From IMG/VR virus record IMGVR_UViG_3300046396_000007, positions 1 to 52,700 of that record: a DNA stretch of 52,700 nt. One strand, 5' to 3'. The notes beneath the pieces were generated by a model. It was not told where the DNA came from and made no database searches. It was given only the letters and a program-made list of their open reading frames with translations. A program made the translations under genes and the position numbers. Shown here piece after piece: positions 846 through 52,700 of the stretch (positions within the stretch are counted from its first letter, which is position 1; each line of letters begins with the position of its first letter). Origin of the DNA: a virus.

Positions 846-1235
846 ATGGAAAAGAAAATAGCAATTAAGATTAAGAATGAGCGACAATTTAGGATATTAA
901 TGCAACATTACAGAGATAGGGGATTTTACCCTGGTAGTAATTGCGAGTTGCATGAATTAGATTATAATTCATGCTTGGCAGTAGGATATGAAAATAATTT
1001 TAATTCTATTTATTCCGAACATGAATTAAATAAATATACTATTCTTAACTTCCACCAATTTGCCTCAATAGTTGGCATAGAATTGCTGCCTGAGGAAATA
1101 ATGATAGATATGGAGCCATGCGCAAAAGAAACTGCGACCGTTACTAAAGATGCTGTTGAGTTCTCAGGTCATATTTGTCAGTTGTCAGCATATTTAATTG
1201 AAGAAATATACACCGCTTACAAATCACTTCAGTAA
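846..1235 (+). CDS. hypothetical protein (129 aa)
   Basis: ORF track with an ATG start. Its stop overlaps the next ATG (TAATG at 1233-1237). Confidence 0.65.
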   Translation: MEKKIAIKIKNERQFRILMQHYRDRGFYPGSNCELHELDYNSCLAVGYENNFNSIYSEHELNKYTILNFHQFASIVGIELLPEEIMIDMEPCAKETATVTKDAVEFSGHICQLSAYLIEEIYTAYKSLQ

Positions 1236-1474
1236 TGAGCGCACATCGCCAACAAAGCAAAGATTTACGCGATATGATTCAGTCCGATAGGATAAAGTTT
1301 GCAATAAATCAATTTGAAAAAAGAGGTGTAAAACTTGAATACTAGGATGAAAAAGAAATTTGGTTTTATTGGAAAGGATCACGCGTTACTTTCTTTCCTT
1401 TCACTGGATGGCATAGCGGCAAATCTATAAAAGACGGTCGCGGATTAATGGAATTATTAAATCAATTAAAATAA
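1235..1474 (+). CDS. small protein with an in-frame TAG at 1343-1345 (36 aa + TAG + 42 aa)
   Basis: ATG 1235 reads MSAHRQQSKDLRDMIQSDRIKFAINQFEKRGVKLEY, then TAG, then DEKEIWFYWKGSRVTFFPFTGWHSGKSIKDGRGLMELLNQLK, then TAA 1472-1474. Both ends are TAATG overlaps with neighbouring genes. The 42 codons after the TAG contain no early in-frame start codon. Confidence 0.5.
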
Positions 1475-4687: not shown

Positions 4688-4855
4688 ATGACCACCCATC
4701 AACGCATACAAGCCCTGCTCAACTTAGGCATGACGTATAATGAGCAACGCCGGGATTTCACAGGCCAGAATGGTAAGATCGATCACGATATGGTTATCTA
4801 TCATTCGGATAATGATTTTGAGAAAAAATTAAGTAAATTAAAGGAGAAGAAATGA
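4688..4855 (+). CDS. hypothetical small protein (55 aa)
   Basis: ATG 4688 reads MTTHQRIQALLNLGMTYNEQRRDF...KLKEKK. Its TGA overlaps the next ATG (ATGA). It is below the track's size cut-off. Confidence 0.5.
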   Translation: MTTHQRIQALLNLGMTYNEQRRDFTGQNGKIDHDMVIYHSDNDFEKKLSKLKEKK

Positions 4856-5106
4856 AAACAGAAATAAGGGGCGCATCATTAGTTGCGTTCGAGAAAATAA
4901 TAAGCGATATTGATTCTGCCGCATACGATGCCGGAATTAAACAGGGTAAAATTGATGGCGAAGAGGAATATAAACAATCTCTTGATCGCGAATTTGAAAA
5001 ATCAAACCATGACTTTGTTGTTGAAAAATTCAGCGACTGTAAAACATTGGCAGATTTTACCGAAACATTTAACGAATTACGTAACCGCTCTTATAACTTC
5101 ATGTAG
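4852..5106 (+). CDS. hypothetical protein (84 aa)
   Basis: ORF track. Ends in TAG 5104-5106, directly abutting the clamp ATG in the same frame. Confidence 0.6.
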   Translation: MKTEIRGASLVAFEKIISDIDSAAYDAGIKQGKIDGEEEYKQSLDREFEKSNHDFVVEKFSDCKTLADFTETFNELRNRSYNFM

Positions 5107-6192
5107 ATGCAAATTAAAATCCAACAATCCCAATTATCCGAAGCCTTGAAACTAATATCAAAGGCGGTTAGTCAAAATAATATTATTCCGGCAGCTTCAT
5201 GCATCAGGTTTAAAACAGATGGCAATCAGCTCGAATTATCGAGTTGTAATATGCAAGTTTCAATGCAAACTACAATACCATGTGAGGCTACCGAAAACAA
5301 CGATGGTATCATTCAGTCAGGGTTATTAATCGAAACTATTTCATCATTGGCAGGTCAGTCTGTAACCTTTAATATCGATGGTGGTATAGTTACCATCATT
5401 CACAATTCAGGCACATGTGAGATGCCAATTGAACCAGGGGGCGACTTTCCGAAAATTATCATCGATACCGATAAAGAAGCAAAAATGCAATCCGCTGATT
5501 TGTTTGAGGCAATTTATTCAACTGCTTATGCCAGATATTTAGATGAAACGAATTTAAAGTTTACAGGATTGCAAGTTGATTTCGCAAAGGATAATGCGAC
5601 ATTTGTGGCGTGTAACTTAGTGCTATTATCGGCATTCAATGTGCCTGGCAAATTTAAACCAGGTGGTTTATTAATGCCAAAGCATGTAACAGACGTTTTA
5701 GCTAGTCTCACATTTCAATCTGAATGCACTATTAAGTATTCGGATAAAAGCATTGGTTTCGAGTTTGAAAATGGATTGATAATAAAATCAATGCTTATCG
5801 ATGACAAATATCCTGATTGGCGATCAATCGTGCCTAAAAATGATATTATGTGCACTGTGAACCGGGCCGAATTAGTAAGTTCATTAAAGCGAGTTATTAA
5901 GTTCTCTCCTATCAAAATTAAGATCGTTTCTATTTATGCTTCGGCTGGTAAATTTGAGGTTCAATCATCAGATATGAACATGAAGCAATCGGCAAAGGAA
6001 ACCATTAACGCTAATATGACTACCGACTTAATGATTAATATCAATATTAACGGTGGTGAACTTATAGCAGCTTTATCTCACATGGATAGTGAAAACGTGA
6101 CTTTTTTATATAGTAACCAGGAAACCGCAATGCTTATAAAAGAAGATCTGGAAAATGAAAATTTTGTAAGTATAATGCCGCTGAAAGTGTAG
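5107..6192 (+). CDS. dnaN: DNA polymerase III beta sliding-clamp homologue
   Basis: 361 aa. The N-terminus MQIKIQQSQLSEALKLISKAVSQNNIIPAASCIRFKTDGNQLELSSCNMQ... and ...GGDFP... follow the DnaN pattern. The stop is TAG followed immediately by TAA. Confidence 0.8.
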   Translation: MQIKIQQSQLSEALKLISKAVSQNNIIPAASCIRFKTDGNQLELSSCNMQVSMQTTIPCEATENNDGIIQSGLLIETISSLAGQSVTFNIDGGIVTIIHNSGTCEMPIEPGGDFPKIIIDTDKEAKMQSADLFEAIYSTAYARYLDETNLKFTGLQVDFAKDNATFVACNLVLLSAFNVPGKFKPGGLLMPKHVTDVLASLTFQSECTIKYSDKSIGFEFENGLIIKSMLIDDKYPDWRSIVPKNDIMCTVNRAELVSSLKRVIKFSPIKIKIVSIYASAGKFEVQSSDMNMKQSAKETINANMTTDLMINININGGELIAALSHMDSENVTFLYSNQETAMLIKEDLENENFVSIMPLKV

Positions 6193-6203
6193 TAATTTAG
6201 TTG

Positions 6204-6211
6204 TATATTTG
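6204..6211 (+). promoter_or_regulatory. candidate Bacteroidota -7 box TATATTTG
   Basis: Exact match to TAnnTTTG. No clear TTTG -33 element upstream. Confidence 0.35.
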
Positions 6212-6248
6212 TTTATCAGCGTTGCAGGCTGAACAGAAAACATTAAAC

Positions 6249-6302
6249 GTCCTAATTGGGGAGGCTCTGCAACGGCTAACCCAGTTAGGACTTCTTTATT
6301 TT
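6249..6302 (+). terminator. intrinsic-terminator-like hairpin plus T-tract directly before the ATG at 6303
   Basis: gtcctaattgg (6249-6259) pairs with ccagttaggac (6281-6291): 11 bp with one G-U. It is followed by ttctttatttta. Confidence 0.6.
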
Positions 6303-8534
6303 ATGGAAAAATTATCTTACGAACAATTAATCGAACAAAAAAGAATTAAGCCCAAATTATCTGGATTTGAAGTTGAAGAAAATGCGCTACACGGATTGCT
6401 TTTTGATTTTCAAAAATACTGTACCCGATTAGCGTTAAGACATGGGCGATACGCCTTATTTGAAGATTGTGGTCTTGGTAAAACATTTCAGGGATCCGAG
6501 TGGGTGACAAAAATAACCAATCACATACAACGGCCTTGTATTTCAGTTGCTCCGCTGGCTGTGGTTGATCAAACAATTCAAGAGGGTGTTAGATTTGGTT
6601 ACGATATTCGCGAAGCAAAAAAAGGCTCTGATTACCCCTTTCAAATTACAAATTACGAACAACTCGACAATATTAACCCCGATGATTACGGCGCTATATG
6701 GCTGGATGAAAGTTCCATTCTGAAAAACGAAACTGGCGCGTATCGTAACAAATTAATCAAAGGCTTTGAAAACCATCAATTCAAACTTTGCACCACCGCA
6801 ACACCCTCTCCTAATGATCCAATGGAATTAGGTAACCATAGCGAATTTTTAAATATTATGCCATATAATGAAATGCTGGCTATGTTCTTTACGCATGATG
6901 GTAGTGACACTTCAAAGTGGAAAATTAAAGGACATGCTAAACAGCGTTTTTATGAATGGGTTAATTCATGGGCTATTATGCTTAGCAACCCTGCCGATAT
7001 TGGTTTTTCAGCAACTGGATATGATTTACCAGCGCTTAATTTTATTGAGAAACAAATCAAAACCCCAAAACGGGATAATGGTAAAATATTCAATGATACC
7101 GCTGTTAGTGCGACTAATATTAATAGTGAGTTTCGTTTGACGGTTGTGCCGCGTCTGGAAATGGTTAAAGAAATTATAGATACTAAACCGGGCGAAGCAT
7201 TTTCAATTTGGATTAAACACAAGGCGGAGGGTGAATCGTTACGCAAATTACTACCAGATGCTATAGAAGTATCTGGCGAACACAAACCTGAATATAAAAA
7301 GAAAATGCTATTAGCATTCGGTAAAGATGAGTTTCAATTCATTATAACCAAAAGTAAGATAGCTAGTTTCGGCTTGAACTGGCAAAACTGCCACAACGCA
7401 ATCGCAGCTACTGTTGGATTTGGTTTTGAAGAAATATACCAGCTAATAAGGCGACATTATCGTTTCGGTCAAAAGCATGATGTTAATCTTTGGATTATTA
7501 CTACAGACACGATGCAGAACGTTATTCAATCAATTAACAAAAAAATTAAAAACCATATTGAAATGCAAAAAGGTATGACCAAAGCCCATCTAAAGCAAAT
7601 GGCAATTGAAAAAGGCGAAGAACCAAAAGAGCAAATGCAATCGTACAAAGGTAAAAACTTTGAAGTTTACCGCGGAAACTGCGTGAAATTAATCAATAAT
7701 TTAGCCGATAATTCAATCGGATTTTCAATGTTTTCTCCGCCCTTCCCTACATTATATGTATATTCAAACCATGATGAAGACATGGGTAATAATAAAGACT
7801 TTAATAAATTTAAACAGGAATTTCAATATATGGTTGCGCCTTTATTTAACAAGATGCAAGCCGGGCGTAATGTTGTTGTTCACTGCCAGGATTTGCCAAT
7901 TCAAAAGGGTAAAGAGGGATATATCGGATTACGCGACTTCAGTGGAATGATACTTGATACTTTTATTGATGCCGGGTTTATTTACCATTCCCGCGTTACG
8001 CTATGGAAAAACCCTGTTATTGAAATGACGCGGACACATGCATTAGGTTTATTACATGCTCAAATTAAAAAAGACGCTGGAATGAGCCGAGTTGGTTTAC
8101 CTGATTATTTATTAGTTTTTCGTAAACCAGGCGAACATGAAAACCCGGTTAAGCACCAGGATACTGACCCTAACGGCCCAAACTTCATGAACGTTGACAT
8201 GTGGCAAAAAATAGCATCACCGGTTTGGTTTGATGTTAACTTTAGTGAAACACTCAATTTAAAAGGCTCAAAAGATGCTGATGATGAAGCTCACATATGC
8301 CCTTTATCATTGGACACTATAGGTAGGGCTACATTGTTATGGAGCAATCCTGGCGACCTTTGTTATACTCCATTTGGAGGCATAGGTTCAGAGCCTTTTA
8401 AATGGCTTGAAATGGGGCGAAAGGCTATTGCAAATGAATTAAAGGAATCGTACTTTAATATTCATATTAAAAACTGCAAGGCGCAAGAGGTTGCTGTTGA
8501 GGCTGGCAAAAGGCAAATGTTAATGTTTAGTTGA
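6303..8534 (+). CDS. SNF2-family helicase fused to an N6-adenine/N4-cytosine DNA methyltransferase
   Basis: Helicase motifs seen: DCGLGKT, WLDESS, TTATPSPND, RRHYRFGQ. The C-terminal half has SPPF (FSMFSPPFPTLY), then later TPFGGIGSE (FxGxG), which is the beta-class motif order. ATG at 6303 is preferred over the track's TTG at 6201. Confidence 0.8.
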   Translation: MEKLSYEQLIEQKRIKPKLSGFEVEENALHGLLFDFQKYCTRLALRHGRYALFEDCGLGKTFQGSEWVTKITNHIQRPCISVAPLAVVDQTIQEGVRFGYDIREAKKGSDYPFQITNYEQLDNINPDDYGAIWLDESSILKNETGAYRNKLIKGFENHQFKLCTTATPSPNDPMELGNHSEFLNIMPYNEMLAMFFTHDGSDTSKWKIKGHAKQRFYEWVNSWAIMLSNPADIGFSATGYDLPALNFIEKQIKTPKRDNGKIFNDTAVSATNINSEFRLTVVPRLEMVKEIIDTKPGEAFSIWIKHKAEGESLRKLLPDAIEVSGEHKPEYKKKMLLAFGKDEFQFIITKSKIASFGLNWQNCHNAIAATVGFGFEEIYQLIRRHYRFGQKHDVNLWIITTDTMQNVIQSINKKIKNHIEMQKGMTKAHLKQMAIEKGEEPKEQMQSYKGKNFEVYRGNCVKLINNLADNSIGFSMFSPPFPTLYVYSNHDEDMGNNKDFNKFKQEFQYMVAPLFNKMQAGRNVVVHCQDLPIQKGKEGYIGLRDFSGMILDTFIDAGFIYHSRVTLWKNPVIEMTRTHALGLLHAQIKKDAGMSRVGLPDYLLVFRKPGEHENPVKHQDTDPNGPNFMNVDMWQKIASPVWFDVNFSETLNLKGSKDADDEAHICPLSLDTIGRATLLWSNPGDLCYTPFGGIGSEPFKWLEMGRKAIANELKESYFNIHIKNCKAQEVAVEAGKRQMLMFS

Positions 8535-11332: not shown

Positions 11333-11433
11333 GATGAAAAATTACAAACAATTACAAATAAATTACAAAGTTTTTTTCGTTAACTTATTGATATTTAGTT
11401 ACTTATTGTCAATATTACAAAAATTACAAAGTT
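11320..11433 (+). repeat. direct iterons ATTACAAA(GTT), 6 copies
   Basis: Copies start at 11320, 11341, 11351, 11362, 11414 and 11423. Those at 11320, 11362 and 11423 have the full ATTACAAAGTT. Confidence 0.9.
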
Positions 11434-11541
11434 TTTACTACTATTTATATGAAATATATCGCGCACGTAAAATATATAAAATGTTAGTAATTTTAGTAAT
11501 TTTTAGCATAGTTTGTTTATTATCAATTAGTTACGTTTTTC

Positions 11542-11615
11542 AACTTTGTAATTTTTTGACCAAACTTTGTAATTTTTCCCTTCAACTTTGTAATTTTTCT
11601 TAAAACTTTGTAATT
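11542..11615 (-). repeat. inverted iterons AACTTTGTAATT, 4 copies at 20-21-nt spacing
   Basis: Exact 12-mers at 11542, 11563, 11584 and 11604. Confidence 0.95.
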
Positions 11616-11638
11616 TTTTTAGACTAAAACTATTTAAA

Positions 11639-30246: not shown

Positions 30247-32354
30247 TGAGTGGAGTTTTCTACATATCAGGATTGAATGGTTTTCGCTGGACATTGGAAA
30301 CTATTTCGCTAAATCCAAATTTAAACTCATTGCCAGCAGATAGCGAAATTGATTTGCAATCATATCCAGCACCAATCCAAAAGACAGATACAGCATTCCC
30401 GGCTTTAGTTTTGCTATCCGATTTTCCGGATATGACATTGCAATTTTTAACCTGTCAAAACCAAGTAATAGCAACGCCATCATTAGGGGCAACTTCGTCA
30501 AGCATTGTCGGGCAAACATTTTTGCAGTATTTGGCAACAGTTGATTTTTCAGCGTTCCCGATTGGCAGATGCTACGGGCGCGTAAGTTATGATGCTAATT
30601 TACCAGCTTCAATAAATAGTAAACTAACAGAGTTATTAAGCCCTTTTATTGACGGTAATTTAATTACCACGATTAATGGTGTTGACGTTTCTACATTGGT
30701 TAGTGCAGGCACTTATTCAGGTATTGGTGTTGCAGGACAGACGTACGTATTCAAGGCACAGAGTTTACTTGCTTCTGGGGCTGCAAATCCGCGTATAAGG
30801 ATGACTATAACAAAAACGGTTGATAATGTCGCAACTGTTATTTATGATCATTCACAGGTTTGTAACGGCGCTAATTTATTCACAAAATCAGGTATAATTC
30901 AACCAGGCGCATCTTATAGCGCCATTGTTGTTACTGAAGATACATCGGTTGTAATTTCACCCATTGATATTGCTGATGATTCACCAGTTACGGCAAATGT
31001 GCAGTCATGGATCAGTTGCCCTATTGATGTGCAACAAAATCATCCCGACACGCAATTGATTCAGTATCAAAATTCAGAAAATACAGAAAGTGTTTTATTT
31101 CATCCATCCGAACTAATTTTACAGATGCGTATCGCCGGTAATTTTACGGGCGGCTACCAGGCAAAGGCTAATAGGCAAACTTTTGAAGATCAACCTTATA
31201 ATCCTGTTTTATTAAACGGATTTAATTACGATATTTATACTCATTATTTAGGTGGTGATGATTTTCAATTCCCGGATTGGGTGATAAAGAAATTGAACCT
31301 AATATGGGCAAAATGCGATCAGGTTAAGATTGATTATGAGTTTTATGTTGCAGCTGGGGATTTTAAAAGTGAACGTCCTATTTACACACGTAATCGGAAC
31401 GGCTATAATTATGAACTGGATCTGCAAATAGTAAAAGGTTTTGAATTTGGACAATTAACAGCGGGGGCAACTCCTACAGGAGATTTAATAGTGGTAAGAA
31501 AAACTTGGCCTGCAACAACGCCTTTCCCAAACTTCACAACATCATTTGCTATAAATGGCGTTTTTAGTCAATACAGCACATTGGATTATTTGCAAACAAT
31601 TAATCCGGATTTAGCAACATTTACGATAAAACTCGGAACTACGATAGGCGGAAATGAAATCTATGAGGGTGAAATAGGTACGCCAAATACAGATGCAAGT
31701 ATTGAATTAATTGAGATCCATGATATAGGGACTGGTTTTAATTCAGCAACAACGGTTTATTGTACCTTACCACCGGGTGTCAATATACAGGCTATACTTG
31801 TTTACGATCAACTAGATAGTCCGGCTGTTAGCGTTCCATCAAGTGGCGGGGGCGGTATTCCGCAAGGGACTATTGCGTATTATAAAGAGCTTGTGGCTGG
31901 CTATTTTACCCGTGATTGGGATATTGCAACAGGACTTGGCCAAGTCGGGTCATTATATGAGGGATGCCAAATATATGATGAAGCAGCTGGGCGTGTGCTA
32001 GTTGCATGGGATAGGGCAACCATTGATCCTGCGGCAGGACGCGGCACACCAGGTATTACAGGGGCATTACAGGTAGGGAATGTCGGTAACTTGGTTACAT
32101 TGACACAGGCGCAATTGCCAGCAGTTGGGTTGAATATGTTTGCAGATCAGGTAAATACTACCGATTCAGATTTTCCAACAATAACAGATCCGGTAGCTAA
32201 AGAGAATAACCAATCAATAGTGCAGCGCAGATGTTATTCGGTGCGTAAAGGCACAATTGAGCCAACTATAGGCCGAACCGCTAAAATGGGTGCCGGAACT
32301 GCTATAAGCGTTGCAAATGATGGTTTAATTATGCTTTGCTACATAAAATTATGA
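30246..32354 (+). CDS. tail/baseplate protein, possible receptor-binding component (702 aa)
   Basis: ORF track. Position in the tail module. Confidence 0.55.
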   Translation: MSGVFYISGLNGFRWTLETISLNPNLNSLPADSEIDLQSYPAPIQKTDTAFPALVLLSDFPDMTLQFLTCQNQVIATPSLGATSSSIVGQTFLQYLATVDFSAFPIGRCYGRVSYDANLPASINSKLTELLSPFIDGNLITTINGVDVSTLVSAGTYSGIGVAGQTYVFKAQSLLASGAANPRIRMTITKTVDNVATVIYDHSQVCNGANLFTKSGIIQPGASYSAIVVTEDTSVVISPIDIADDSPVTANVQSWISCPIDVQQNHPDTQLIQYQNSENTESVLFHPSELILQMRIAGNFTGGYQAKANRQTFEDQPYNPVLLNGFNYDIYTHYLGGDDFQFPDWVIKKLNLIWAKCDQVKIDYEFYVAAGDFKSERPIYTRNRNGYNYELDLQIVKGFEFGQLTAGATPTGDLIVVRKTWPATTPFPNFTTSFAINGVFSQYSTLDYLQTINPDLATFTIKLGTTIGGNEIYEGEIGTPNTDASIELIEIHDIGTGFNSATTVYCTLPPGVNIQAILVYDQLDSPAVSVPSSGGGGIPQGTIAYYKELVAGYFTRDWDIATGLGQVGSLYEGCQIYDEAAGRVLVAWDRATIDPAAGRGTPGITGALQVGNVGNLVTLTQAQLPAVGLNMFADQVNTTDSDFPTITDPVAKENNQSIVQRRCYSVRKGTIEPTIGRTAKMGAGTAISVANDGLIMLCYIKL

Positions 32355-32758
32355 AACACGAAAGCGTAATAAGCCGGATAATATCAGCCATTAAGGGTAA
32401 CAAAATTGCCGTTCGTGAAAATCTTTTTTATGATACTTTAAAAGGTAATTTAGATTTTGGGTTAGATGACGTTCCTAACATGAGGGCGGTGTTATCGGCA
32501 AATTCTGGCGGGGTGCAAAATCCGTTTGCTTCAGTATCGGGTATTACTATCAACTGGCAAACAGATCTTGCAGATGGAGTTAATACATATGCTGCATTGC
32601 TTGGTAATATATTCCCCCGTCCTGTAGTTGCGATCCTATCCACCGGGACTACTTATGTTTACCCTGGTACATTACCTACCGTTGACTTCGATGGCACACT
32701 CATTAATACCGTTACCCTTGATTGGGGAAGCGTTGGGAATGGATTTGTGAGGTGGTAG
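32336..32758 (+). CDS. hypothetical tail-module protein (140 aa)
   Basis: ORF track. It is the last gene of the long plus-strand block. Confidence 0.55.
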   Translation: MLHKIMKHESVISRIISAIKGNKIAVRENLFYDTLKGNLDFGLDDVPNMRAVLSANSGGVQNPFASVSGITINWQTDLADGVNTYAALLGNIFPRPVVAILSTGTTYVYPGTLPTVDFDGTLINTVTLDWGSVGNGFVRW

Positions 32759-32761
32759 GGG

Positions 32762-32968
32762 TTAATCTTCATAGTCATTCCAATCGATATAGGCGGTGTC
32801 TATTCCGTCATCATTTCCATCATCTACCATAACGCCACCCTCTAATCCACATTCAACACATTGCGCTAAATCGCCATCATACGCATATCCATCGGGGGCG
32901 CTTGTATATATTTCTGCTTCATTGCCGCATCTTGGACAATTATCTTCAAAATGTTTCCAGTCTTTCAT
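32762..32968 (-). CDS. zinc-ribbon protein with an acidic tail (68 aa)
   Basis: CPRC ... CVEC, with a D/E-rich C-terminus. Confidence 0.6.
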   Translation of the reverse strand: MKDWKHFEDNCPRCGNEAEIYTSAPDGYAYDGDLAQCVECGLEGGVMVDDGNDDGIDTAYIDWNDYED

Positions 32969-33069
32969 CTCAAAATAAATATTAAAATCAGTATTGTTAA
33001 TATAAAAGGCGCTAAAATAACTATTAACGCAATTGAGGCTATTAGGTAGTATAGGAGGAGGGTTTTCAT
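32965..33069 (-). CDS. hydrophobic micro-peptide (34 aa)
   Basis: Reads MKTLLLYYLIASIALIVILAPFILTILILIFILR. ATGA overlap with the downstream gene. Confidence 0.35.
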   Translation of the reverse strand: MKTLLLYYLIASIALIVILAPFILTILILIFILR

Positions 33070-33072
33070 AAG

Positions 33073-33480
33073 TTAATACGCTTTATTGTGTTTGTATGGA
33101 CGTGTAGAGTTGTATATTAACTTCTGCTCAATATGCCAATCAATATCTATTTTCATAGCGCCACAAACATCAAGTACACGGATAATAATGTCTGCCATTT
33201 CATCCTCGAAAGTATTTTTAATTGAAGTCTCAAAAGCATCTGAAAATCTGTTTTTTGAATTAATTATTTGCTCAACACCACCACTAATAACAATTGTAGG
33301 CAATTGAATATTAGAAGCGTGTTTATTTTTACGATCAGCTTCGCAAGCCTCTGCAACTTCTGTTACAATCAGCATTAATACTTCGCCTATATTTTTAGCT
33401 TTAATACCACCATCCTAAAAACCTTTCTTCTCATTGTTAGAATGGATTGATTTTGATAATTCATTTAAATTTGTTTTCAT
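33073..33480 (-). CDS. mazG: MazG-like nucleoside triphosphate pyrophosphohydrolase with an in-frame TAG at codon 22 (33415-33417)
   Basis: ...VTEVAEACEADRK...EDEMADIIIRVLDVCGAMKIDIDWHIEQKLIYNSTRPYKHNK fits the MazG family. ATG 33480 gives MKTNLNELSKSIHSNNEKKGF, then TAG, then DGGIKAKNIGEVLMLIVTEV... in the same frame. Confidence 0.7.
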
Positions 33481-33501
33481 ATCGTTGTTTTTATTGAGAG
33501 G

Positions 33502-33747
33502 TTAAAAAGGTAAATCGTCTAATGAATCACGGATCTCTTTTTCAGTAGGGATATAATTATCTCTTATAAAATCGTCTGCAAATTCAAGATCGCCATAACT
33601 ACCAGTACTAACCATGTCATATAATTGATTAATTACATTACAGGCATGTTGAACTTCTTGCTCTAAGTCTTTCATTTCAACATCGCGTATATAATTTATT
33701 TCGGTTAACAACTGCTCACATCCGCAATTACAATTAGTGTTTTTCAT
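33502..33747 (-). CDS. hypothetical protein (81 aa, Cys-rich N-terminus)
   Basis: ORF track. Confidence 0.55.
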   Translation of the reverse strand: MKNTNCNCGCEQLLTEINYIRDVEMKDLEQEVQHACNVINQLYDMVSTGSYGDLEFADDFIRDNYIPTEKEIRDSLDDLPF

Positions 33748-33932
33748 ACTCCAAACTCTCCATTTTTAAAACTCAATTCCGGGAATGGCTTGGCGTGTGA
33801 GGGTAGGGTGCCGGGGCCGGGCATACTGCTTGCACTTACTAATGCTTTACGCGCTTGCTCGATTAATAGATTTTGCGCATGCAACATGGCTTTAATATTG
33901 GCTACTCTGATTTTAATTTCGTTCTTTTTCAT
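33744..33932 (-). CDS. hypothetical protein (62 aa)
   Basis: ORF track. ATGA overlap with the downstream gene. Confidence 0.55.
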   Translation of the reverse strand: MKKNEIKIRVANIKAMLHAQNLLIEQARKALVSASSMPGPGTLPSHAKPFPELSFKNGEFGV

Positions 33933-33946
33933 AATTTTTATTTTTG

Positions 33947-34017
33947 TGCATGCGGGGCGATTCGAACACCCATCTTCAGAATGAAAATCTGATTCTCTGC
34001 CTTTAAGTTACATATGC
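33947..34017 (-). tRNA. tRNA-Glu (anticodon TTC), no encoded CCA
   Basis: Hand-folded cloverleaf. Acceptor GCATATG/CGCATGC has one A-C mismatch and one G-U. D arm is CTT-AAAGGCA-GAG. Anticodon stem TCAGA/TCTGA carries loop TTTTCAT. Variable loop is 4 nt. T arm is GGGTG-TTCGAAT-CGCCC. Confidence 0.65.
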
Positions 34018-34043
34018 TGCCTGCCGGCCCTTGCGAATAAGTT

Positions 34044-34208
34044 CTAAGCGCTATCTTGCACCAACATTCCAGTTTTTAATACTGGCAAAATCTTTCTTAC
34101 TTTCTCCACCCTTACCACTTCCCCACACACCGTACAATAGATTGTTATTGTTGTGGATGTGCCGGATTGAACGATTGATGGATGAGCGCAATTGGTTGGT
34201 TTTTTCAT
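34044..34208 (-). CDS. zinc-ribbon-like micro-protein (54 aa)
   Basis: ATG 34208 reads MKKPTNCAHPSIVQSGTSTTITIYCTVCGEVVRVEKVRKILPVLKTGMLVQDSA and ends at TAG 34044-34046. Confidence 0.4.
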   Translation of the reverse strand: MKKPTNCAHPSIVQSGTSTTITIYCTVCGEVVRVEKVRKILPVLKTGMLVQDSA

Positions 34209-34264
34209 ATATAAACTTTAATTTCTAATCCGTAAAGTTTCTTTTATTTGATAGTTAGATACCA

Positions 34265-34477
34265 TTACTTCAAATAAATGTCTACAATCGCTTTATTTTG
34301 CACCTTGTACCGCTTTTTATAATCCATTGATTTAAGCAGGTTTTTGATGATAAATTTTGCTCTTTTTTCGCCAATATAATCACCTAATCTATTGATTGAA
34401 ACCAAAAATCTTTTGCGAGGTTTGCCGGGCTTGGTTTTTAGTTGGATGACTACGTTATAGGTTTGTTTTAGCTTCAT
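34265..34477 (-). CDS. hypothetical basic protein (70 aa)
   Basis: ORF track. Confidence 0.55.
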   Translation of the reverse strand: MKLKQTYNVVIQLKTKPGKPRKRFLVSINRLGDYIGEKRAKFIIKNLLKSMDYKKRYKVQNKAIVDIYLK

Positions 34478-34707
34478 GGTATAACTGCTAAAATTGCGCC
34501 TACTATAGCATTATAAACAGCATCTTCATTATTGCAAAGATTTAATTCGCAATCAATGACATTTTCTAAGCATATTTTACGTTGCTCAATACAGGCCTCA
34601 TTTGCAAATATCCTCATAGCCTCTAAAATGTATATATGAACTTCAACTGGACACTGGTATGGCATTATATCAATCATTTTTTTTAGGATCTCATCTGCAC
34701 TTTTCAT
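34474..34707 (-). CDS. hypothetical protein (77 aa)
   Basis: ORF track. ATGA overlaps. Confidence 0.55.
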   Translation of the reverse strand: MKSADEILKKMIDIMPYQCPVEVHIYILEAMRIFANEACIEQRKICLENVIDCELNLCNNEDAVYNAIVGAILAVIP

Positions 34708-34871
34708 ATAAACAAATTTGCATAAATTAATAATAAACTTTTTCGTTCCTGGTAAAAGTTAGGCGGGAACATTTCGGGATAGTCGTGGATGGTGCTTACA
34801 ATGTGCTGCACATCTTCACAGCAATTGGCATTATCTAATAGGTCTAGTATTTCGTCGGGGCGGTAGATCAT
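34704..34871 (-). CDS. hypothetical small protein (55 aa)
   Basis: ATG 34871 reads MIYRPDEILDLLDNANCCEDVQHIVSTIHDYPEMFPPNFYQERKSLLLIYANLFI. ATGA overlaps at both ends. Confidence 0.45.
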   Translation of the reverse strand: MIYRPDEILDLLDNANCCEDVQHIVSTIHDYPEMFPPNFYQERKSLLLIYANLFI

Positions 34872-35101
34872 GATTCGATTTTATTTAATTGTATTATAAT
34901 TTCATCTGCAATAATTACCGCAGCTTCAATATAATCTACACATGAACCTTGTTTAATTTCTCCGAGCGAATATTGATTAGTGGCTAATAAGCCTATCATT
35001 GCTTGCCCTACATAATAGTCCCGGATGCTCATACCGTATTCCGGCTGGGCATTATTGTGGTCTCCGGTTGGAAATGCGCTATTTATGGCTGTTATTTTCA
35101 T
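34868..35101 (-). CDS. hypothetical protein (77 aa)
   Basis: ORF track. GMSIRDYYVGQAMIGLLA... resembles a widespread small phage protein family, from memory only. Confidence 0.55.
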   Translation of the reverse strand: MKITAINSAFPTGDHNNAQPEYGMSIRDYYVGQAMIGLLATNQYSLGEIKQGSCVDYIEAAVIIADEIIIQLNKIES

Positions 35102-51719: not shown

Positions 51720-52331
51720 TTAATTATTTAAAATATCATTTAATATTGATAGCCCTACTTTTGGATGTACACAGTTGCGGAGTATTTGAACAGGACAGTG
51801 ATTTGTCCCGTAATAAATATTTTTTTCATAATGAATTCCTAACCAATCCATCATTATTTTTTTGCTTTCTACGGTTGCAAGATTTATAAAGTTTTTTGGT
51901 TGTTCAATTTCAATATTTGTTAACTTTACATTACTCCAAAATAGGTGCCTCCCTATCTTTTGCGGATTAAATTGTGCTTCATAGTATGGTGTTACGTTTT
52001 CAACAACAAATGATCCTTTAAACCAATGCTTAAGAAATATTATTTCTTCAAATAACTTTCCGTCTACATATCTAACGGTGTTATGCCGCGTAAATTTATT
52101 CATTTTTGAATGAGATTGACATGGCGGACTACTCCATATAATATCAAATAAATTATGGTTCTCTAATAAAAATTGATGGGCATCCCTAACTAAAACAATC
52201 TGGTTTGGTTTTCGATCTTGTAAAACAGAAGCAATTCTTTCATCTAATTCAATATTAACTATCTGGTGTTTTGTATCATCCCATAAATTTGAGTTTCCGC
52301 CTAATCCAGCGTATAGATTTAATATTTTCAT
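51720..52331 (-). CDS. very short DNA (cytosine-5) methyltransferase-like protein (203 aa)
   Basis: Motifs seen: I (LNLYAGLGG), IV (SSPPCQSHS), VI (VVENV), X-like (RNCVHPKVGLSIL). The ATG at 52331 is preferred over the track's TTG at 52346. Confidence 0.7.
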   Translation of the reverse strand: MKILNLYAGLGGNSNLWDDTKHQIVNIELDERIASVLQDRKPNQIVLVRDAHQFLLENHNLFDIIWSSPPCQSHSKMNKFTRHNTVRYVDGKLFEEIIFLKHWFKGSFVVENVTPYYEAQFNPQKIGRHLFWSNVKLTNIEIEQPKNFINLATVESKKIMMDWLGIHYEKNIYYGTNHCPVQILRNCVHPKVGLSILNDILNN

Positions 52332-52456: not shown

Positions 52457-52700
52457 ATGGAAAAGAACTTCGCCCTCACAGAGGAAACAATGGTAAACAT
52501 ATTTGGTATAAGGCTATACCGAATAAAGGCAACTAAAACAACGAAGTATGTAAAAGAGGGTGATTTAGGCGGATGGGTAGATACGGAAACTACAAAAAAC
52601 GGCGATGCGCGGGTTTCCGGCGATGCATGGGTTTCCGGCAATGCGCAGGTTTACGGCGATGCATGGGTTTCCGGCGATGCATGGGTTTCCGGCAATGCGC
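52457..52700 (+). CDS. 5' part of the wrap-around hexapeptide-repeat protein gene (continues at base 1)
   Basis: ATG 52457 reads MEKNFALTEETMVNIFGIRLYRIKATKTTKYVKEGDLGGWVDTETTKNGDARVSGDAWVSGNAQVY... and is open to the window end. It was not in the ORF track because it has no stop inside the window. Confidence 0.8.
   Translation, partial: MEKNFALTEETMVNIFGIRLYRIKATKTTKYVKEGDLGGWVDTETTKNGDARVSGDAWVSGNAQVYGDAWVSGDAWVSGNA
52598..52700. repeat. Terminal direct repeat, identical to 1..103
   Basis: 103/103 identity with the window start. Confidence 0.95.

Follow-up and report, generated by a model that had tools for sequence, protein, structure and literature searches.

The minus strand of the 52,700-nucleotide stretch of viral DNA analysed here (the window; IMG/VR virus record IMGVR_UViG_3300046396_000007) carries a gene for a predicted MazG-like all-alpha NTP pyrophosphohydrolase, the reading frame of which is broken by an in-frame amber codon. 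A second small gene, in the replication/recombination module, is interrupted in the same way. The two amber codons are probably independent and recent nonsense mutations, each a transition, in dispensable accessory genes of a phage that uses the standard genetic code.

Translation of the minus strand from the ATG at 33480 reads MKTNLNELSKSIHSNNEKKGF, a stop, and then DGGIKAKNIGEVLMLIVTEVAEACEADRK, continuing in the same frame to HNKAY and closing with the TAA at 33075-33073. As the original prediction had described, the TAG at 33415-33417 is the single in-frame amber within this reading. The standard ORF list shows just the residual downstream ORF at the locus, and the JGI gene call is the same 100-residue fragment (P0002), named 'NTP pyrophosphatase'. 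The identification as MazG-like is borne out on both sides of the stop: when the conceptual product was searched with an X at the stop, the PHROG pyrophosphatase profiles phrog_9236 and phrog_3301 matched residues 2-108 (E 2e-32) and 2-135 (E 2e-25), respectively. A search of 5.8 billion protein clusters gave 144 MazG-like relatives, most of them 120-135 residues long with 97-100% query cover, the closest of which (P0001) is 78% identical over 100% of its length. The profiles match across the stop and the homologues align end to end over it, so the two halves of 33073-33480 are a single gene. The coordinates of the main features are collected in the table.

Coordinates of the two interrupted genes, their amber codons and the tRNA gene in the window.
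Feature	Position	Strand	Basis
Predicted MazG-like all-alpha NTP pyrophosphohydrolase gene, broken at codon 22	33073..33480	minus	135-codon conceptual reading
In-frame amber TAG, Trp (TGG) in relatives	33415..33417	minus	Translation and homologues
Residual 100-residue ORF from M36	33073..33375	minus	ORF list
Small gene of 79 codons, phrog_28096 (no assigned function), broken at codon 37	1235..1474	plus	Profile and homologues
In-frame amber TAG, CAG (Gln) in nearest relative	1343..1345	plus	DNA alignment with L083
tRNA-Glu (UUC), no suppressor	33946..34017	minus	ARAGORN; Rfam at gathering threshold, single match

The stop lies inside the conserved domain, at the fourth position of the alignment consensus KGFWDGG, in good agreement with the motif KGF-(W/Y)-D given in the original prediction. 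AlphaFold2 modelling of the closest homologue (P0001, 78% identical) places codon 22 in the loop directly after helix 1. Among 85 homologous loci the residue in this column is tryptophan in 48, tyrosine in 11, histidine in nine, phenylalanine in five, threonine in two, leucine in two, isoleucine in one and asparagine in one, with a gap in five; none of the 85 has an internal stop and none has glutamine at this column. For 80 of the 85 loci retrieval relied on motifs that lie beyond the stop, and the set therefore carries no bias towards intact N-termini. At the DNA level the window reads TTT TAG GAT where close relatives read TTT TGG GAC (L081, L082) or TTT TGG GAT (L086), and the proposal that TGG is one transition away from the amber is matched by the codon that these relatives use. 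Leucine, encoded by TTG, replaces the conserved tryptophan at L084:3059-3463 and L085:1109-1513 (P0004); TTG is one step from TGG and likewise from TAG. The 21 codons upstream of the stop are alignable in the same way, with N6 and G20 invariant and L8 and F21 nearly invariant among the homologues, only one of which (L066) starts late.

An intact allele of the window gene at more than 78% identity is absent from the protein database. Exact-pattern scans of IMG/VR and JGI metagenome contigs for the same phage in other samples gave no match, and neither did megablast of 32000-35000 against GenBank phages. In the closest relatives the MazG-like gene lies just 3' of C5 and N6/N4 DNA methyltransferase genes (L081:703-1626, L082:1227-3221), and MazG-like genes are carried by several unrelated phage backbones (L084, L086).

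The model of P0001, which describes the homologue rather than the interrupted product of the window, is all helical (pLDDT 95.8), with helices at residues 5-18, 31-50, 69-86, 91-108, 113-124 and 129-132, and has the all-alpha four-helix-bundle fold. Its best matches in the PDB are the iMazG structures 2Q73 and 2Q5Z (Foldseek probability 0.97-0.99; TM-score 0.72-0.76 normalised to the iMazG chain), followed by RS21-C6/DCTPP1. Weak sequence-profile matches to the PDB pyrophosphatases 4QGP and MazZ (7ODY) were also found, covering the C-terminal helices. The metal-binding motifs, E..E on helix 2 and E..D on helix 4, are present in the window product, and the acidic residues after the stop (E41, E44, E47, E92, D93, E94 and D97) are all intact; E41, E47, E94 and D97 are invariant in the alignment (A1) and E44 is nearly so. 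Against PF12643 the window protein scores 14 bits, below the gathering threshold of 27. JGI names the homologues NTP pyrophosphatase, and PF12643 is present in some of them.

That translation restarts at ATG 33375 (M36), the first in-frame start after the TAG, to give a 100-residue enzyme that is truncated at the N-terminus and still active, is barely credible. The ORF is open, and its product, the sole polypeptide obtainable from a restart, would retain every acidic motif residue. Shine-Dalgarno motifs are almost absent from the genome (3 of 30 starts), so an internal AUG would require no special upstream motif. There is also a natural homologue without the N-terminal helix, at L066:1033-1373, where the ORF opens at MNFYEKEKNIGE; no N-terminal remnant is recognisable upstream of it in the gene's own frame, the sole frame checked. 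Against this, helix 1 (residues 5-18) of the four-helix bundle would be missing from the restart product, as would the first five residues of helix 2; lost as well would be N6 and G20, both invariant, L8 and F21, both nearly so, and the entire G20-F21-W22 loop. Even minimal family members of 96 residues keep helix 1, which is missing from only one of 86 loci. A restart at M36 would, moreover, leave the second interrupted gene unexplained.

This second gene, for which the same feature had been claimed, does indeed carry the same lesion. On the plus strand 1235-1474 reads MSAHRQQ...GVKLEY, a stop and then DEKEIWFYWKGSRVTFFPFTGWHSGKSIKDGRGLMELLNQLK before the terminal stop, with the TAG at 1343-1345. 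Its phrog_28096 match extends over residues 14-79, across the stop, and 15 homologues of 74-80 residues align over the same position. In the nearest relative (L083, 69% identity) the DNA reads TAT CAG GAT where the window has TAC TAG GAT. Across the homologues this column varies, being Q, V, R, K, I, L or a gap. Between the TAG and M72 there is no in-frame ATG, GTG or TTG, so that the conserved C-terminal half of this gene is beyond rescue by re-initiation. The amber codon here also creates one of the rare CTAG sites of the window.

Both amber codons recur in run SRR35491132 as assembled by Logan, where a contig of 52,425 bp is 100% identical to the window over the 14.9 kb that were retrieved (in pieces of 2.3 kb and 12.6 kb) and encodes the exact 100-residue product. 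The identical independent assembly excludes a consensus error of the assembler and strengthens the earlier view that a simple error is unlikely. The Logan assembly and the window probably share a sequencing library, and on the plus strand of the window each of the two changes is C-to-T, as might be expected if the TAGs were systematic read-level errors, or a minority variant taken up by the assemblers, rather than the majority sequence. We consider this very improbable: two different assemblers agree exactly over the 14.9 kb with both sites included, to obtain a 52-kb contig by k-mer assembly takes reads that are both accurate and deep, and substitution errors that survive consensus are rare, with two stop-creating sites among them improbable.

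The first 103 bases of the window are repeated exactly at 52598-52700, and from this terminal overlap it follows that the window is a closed circle, representing a complete tailed-phage genome of about 52.6 kb. The replication/recombination module encodes RecT and an exonuclease, along with a sliding clamp and a fusion of a helicase with a methyltransferase domain; elsewhere there are genes for the large terminase, portal, virion proteins and endolysin, and blocks of small minus-strand genes. The nearest cultured relatives of the portal, at no more than 33% identity, come from Pseudanabaena, Rhodobacteraceae, Polaribacter and Bacteroides phages. A portal that is 66% identical over its full length is found on a 50,893-bp scaffold of a Mucilaginibacter sp. 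metagenome-assembled genome (L089, JAQBNZ010000239.1; 5.8 kb retrieved), which probably represents a phage or prophage related to this one and is the best clue to the host. On the strength of this match a Bacteroidota host is likely.

Several other features of the genome were seen alongside the interrupted genes. Tandem units of 18 bp with the consensus CGGCGATGCGCGGGTTTC run over the circular junction (1-265 and 52544-52700), in at least 12 copies with about 80% matches. The array is GC-rich within a genome of about 37% GC and is open in several frames, and could be iterons or an origin, or else an ORF for a repeat protein (8-322). Between the replication and packaging modules, 11337-11618 contains about 3.8 copies of a AACTTTGTAATTTTT unit with a 21-nt period, together with AAAAATTACA repeats, which may be promoters or an origin. 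The plus-strand gene at 6201-8534 encodes a 777-residue protein with SNF2-type helicase matches and an N6/N4 DNA methyltransferase region (PHROG 16, 62, 67 and 498; Pfam N6_N4_Mtase in the Logan annotation), and the minus-strand gene at 51720-52331 encodes a very compact C5-cytosine DNA methyltransferase of 203 residues with the motifs LYAGLGG, PPCQ and ENV, which matches PF00145 above gathering over profile positions 1-112 only. Directly after the MazG-like gene on the minus strand there is an unlisted ORF of 34 codons (32965-33069), the peptide of which, MKTLLLYYLIASIALIVILAPFILTILILIFILR, is strongly hydrophobic; its TGA and the start codon of the gene that follows overlap as ATGA. A 68-residue protein at 32762-32968 (minus strand) has a weak match to Lar restriction-alleviation proteins (PF14354, E 2.7e-4, below gathering). 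CTAG occurs far less often than expected over the whole window (observed/expected 0.29), and GGCC (0.49) and the 6-bp palindromes GATATC (0.05), CCATGG (0.12), GAATTC (0.13), CTGCAG (0.17) and GGATCC (0.20) are depleted too, which suggests avoidance of restriction.

The phage uses the standard code. TAG ends 11 of the 90 tiled ORFs, in two cases as a TAG-TAA tandem, and is the rarest terminator; the ORFs concerned include the sliding clamp (TAG-TAA), another TAG-TAA gene and a virion protein of 796 residues, and further in-frame stops occur soon after most of these terminators. ORFs cover 93.8% of the window under code 11 as against 94.9% with TAG read as sense. No suppressor tRNA with a CUA anticodon was found in the complete genome with ARAGORN and Rfam, the sole tRNA being Glu-UUC. 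Only two in-frame TAGs are supported by homology, both in small genes of the early or replication modules, and the terminase (TerL), portal, capsid-region, tail and endolysin ORFs are free of interruption. When seven further stop-bridged ORF pairs were compared with PHROGs, no match extended over the stop. The published criteria for a recoded phage (bioRxiv 10.1101/2021.08.26.457843) are that structural and lysis genes contain numerous in-frame stops, that the standard code gives a low coding density, that suppressor tRNAs are present and that the reassigned stop is depleted. Wholesale recoding of TAG is accordingly rejected for the window by its terminator usage, its coding density, its single tRNA and the number and location of its TAGs. 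Nor do the TAGs align with one amino acid such as glutamine, the MazG-like site having tryptophan or another aromatic residue and the second gene glutamine in its nearest relative.

On the plus strand an 84-residue ORF with a terminal TAG (4852-5106) directly abuts the sliding-clamp gene (5107-6192), whose ATG is in the same frame; a read-through fusion of the two was rejected, as the clamp profile begins at the clamp ATG and they are separate genes. Decoding as pyrrolysine or selenocysteine is not plausible, with TAG a common terminator here and no associated element found, and neither is known to be established in the likely host phylum.

It would seem unlikely that the two TAGs are decoded, by an amber suppressor tRNA from the host or from a co-infecting phage, or by basal near-cognate read-through, with some full-length product being made. 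Both genes would then be functional at a reduced or conditional level, and could represent incipient recoding of TAG. It is consistent with decoding that both interrupted genes have TAG rather than any other stop and are otherwise undamaged, with their conserved residues in place, that TAG is so little used as a terminator, and that the C-terminal half of the second gene could be obtained by read-through only, there being no in-frame start before M72. Bacteroidota are, in addition, known as hosts of TAG-recoded phages (Borges et al., bioRxiv 10.1101/2021.08.26.457843). A single suppressor would, however, insert a single amino acid, yet the residues at the two sites are tryptophan, with no glutamine among the 85 loci, and glutamine. 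The affected genes are two of about 90 and are neither structural nor lysis genes, where recoded phages concentrate their stops (bioRxiv 10.1101/2021.08.26.457843). The complete genome is without a suppressor tRNA, code 11 already gives it a coding density of about 94%, and TAG is the genuine terminator of 11 ORFs, most with in-frame stops soon after. No significant RNA structure was found 3' of either TAG (z -1.44 and +0.49), and the chance that both stops are amber is about 0.15. More specifically, that the two ambers are tolerated through suppression by the host or by a co-resident recoded phage, as a very early, suppressor-dependent step towards TAG recoding with conditional expression of the accessory genes, appears improbable.

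Two nonsense mutations, independent of each other, probably account for both genes. TGG would have changed to TAG in the MazG-like gene and CAG to TAG in the phrog_28096 gene; at each site the homologues have a sense codon that is one substitution from the stop, and both changes are single transitions. As neither gene has further damage, the mutations would be recent. Translation of the MazG-like mRNA would halt after 21 residues and yield no functional pyrophosphohydrolase, a loss that the sampled phage population would tolerate, and both genes would appear to be dispensable and unexpressed. In keeping with this, both are small accessory genes, and MazG-like genes occur on many unrelated phage backbones. 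Some observations sit less easily with nonsense mutation. Both lesions are amber and each is followed by GATG; there is no other lesion and the catalytic residues are intact, which would fit a still-expressed gene equally well; and it is somewhat unusual for a single wild phage genome to have two knock-outs fixed in its consensus. From codon counts in 44 long ORFs, the share of TAG among the transition routes to nonsense is 0.38, so two ambers out of two would arise with p ~0.15, and the suggestion that a second amber points beyond simple mutation is a weak hint at most. The shared GAT-G after both TAGs is inherited from ancestral Asp codons that are present in the relatives. A special TAGGATG context was rejected, as seven occurrences were observed against 5.4 expected, and was treated as coincidence. 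A hotspot of 5-methylcytosine deamination, an idea prompted by the C5-methyltransferase of the phage and by the CCAGG contained in the inferred ancestor TAC CAG G of the second gene, found no support either: CCWGG is not depleted (observed/expected 0.90) and the MazG-like site is not CCWGG. Of the three explanations left open by the original prediction, nonsense mutation is therefore favoured; amber suppression has gained no support, and re-initiation founders on the loss of helix 1 and on the second gene.

The finding is an ordinary one, and its main value lies in annotation. The 100-residue P0002 should be flagged as the remnant of an interrupted gene of 135 codons, the split gene at 1235-1474 needs a flag for its interruption as well, and the genome should stay under genetic code 11. 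Expression over the TAGs, if true, would offer an uncommon glimpse of genes that depend on a suppressor in an unrecoded phage and would bear on how the reassignment of stop codons begins, although nothing found points that way.

Among known enzymes the closest comparison is with iMazG, the integron-associated MazG of Vibrio DAT722 (2Q73, 2Q5Z), which shares its four-helix-bundle fold with the model of P0001. Other kin are the single-domain MazG-like enzymes (PF12643; DCTPP1/RS21-C6; phage MazZ, 7ODY), which have the acidic E..E and E..D motifs in common with the window gene. The subfamily of the window gene differs from iMazG and its kin in that about 35 residues are inserted between the two helices that carry the motifs. 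In contrast to those enzymes the window copy is stopped at codon 22, where the frame for the whole domain is interrupted identically in the second assembly. As in classical amber mutants of phages, each TAG in the window is one transition from the sense codon of relatives, the gene is otherwise intact and the genome holds no compensating element. Those mutants are laboratory stocks, whereas the TAGs of the window are the consensus of a wild metagenomic population and the dispensability of the genes is deduced. With the code 15-type phages (crAss-like, Garnet and Topaz) the window shares in-frame TAGs in conserved genes and a probable Bacteroidota host. In those phages, however, TAGs are numerous in structural and lysis genes, density under code 11 is low, suppressor tRNAs are encoded and TAG is lost as a terminator, whereas the window has two TAGs in accessory genes of the early or replication modules, a density of 94%, no suppressor tRNA and 11 ORFs that end in TAG.
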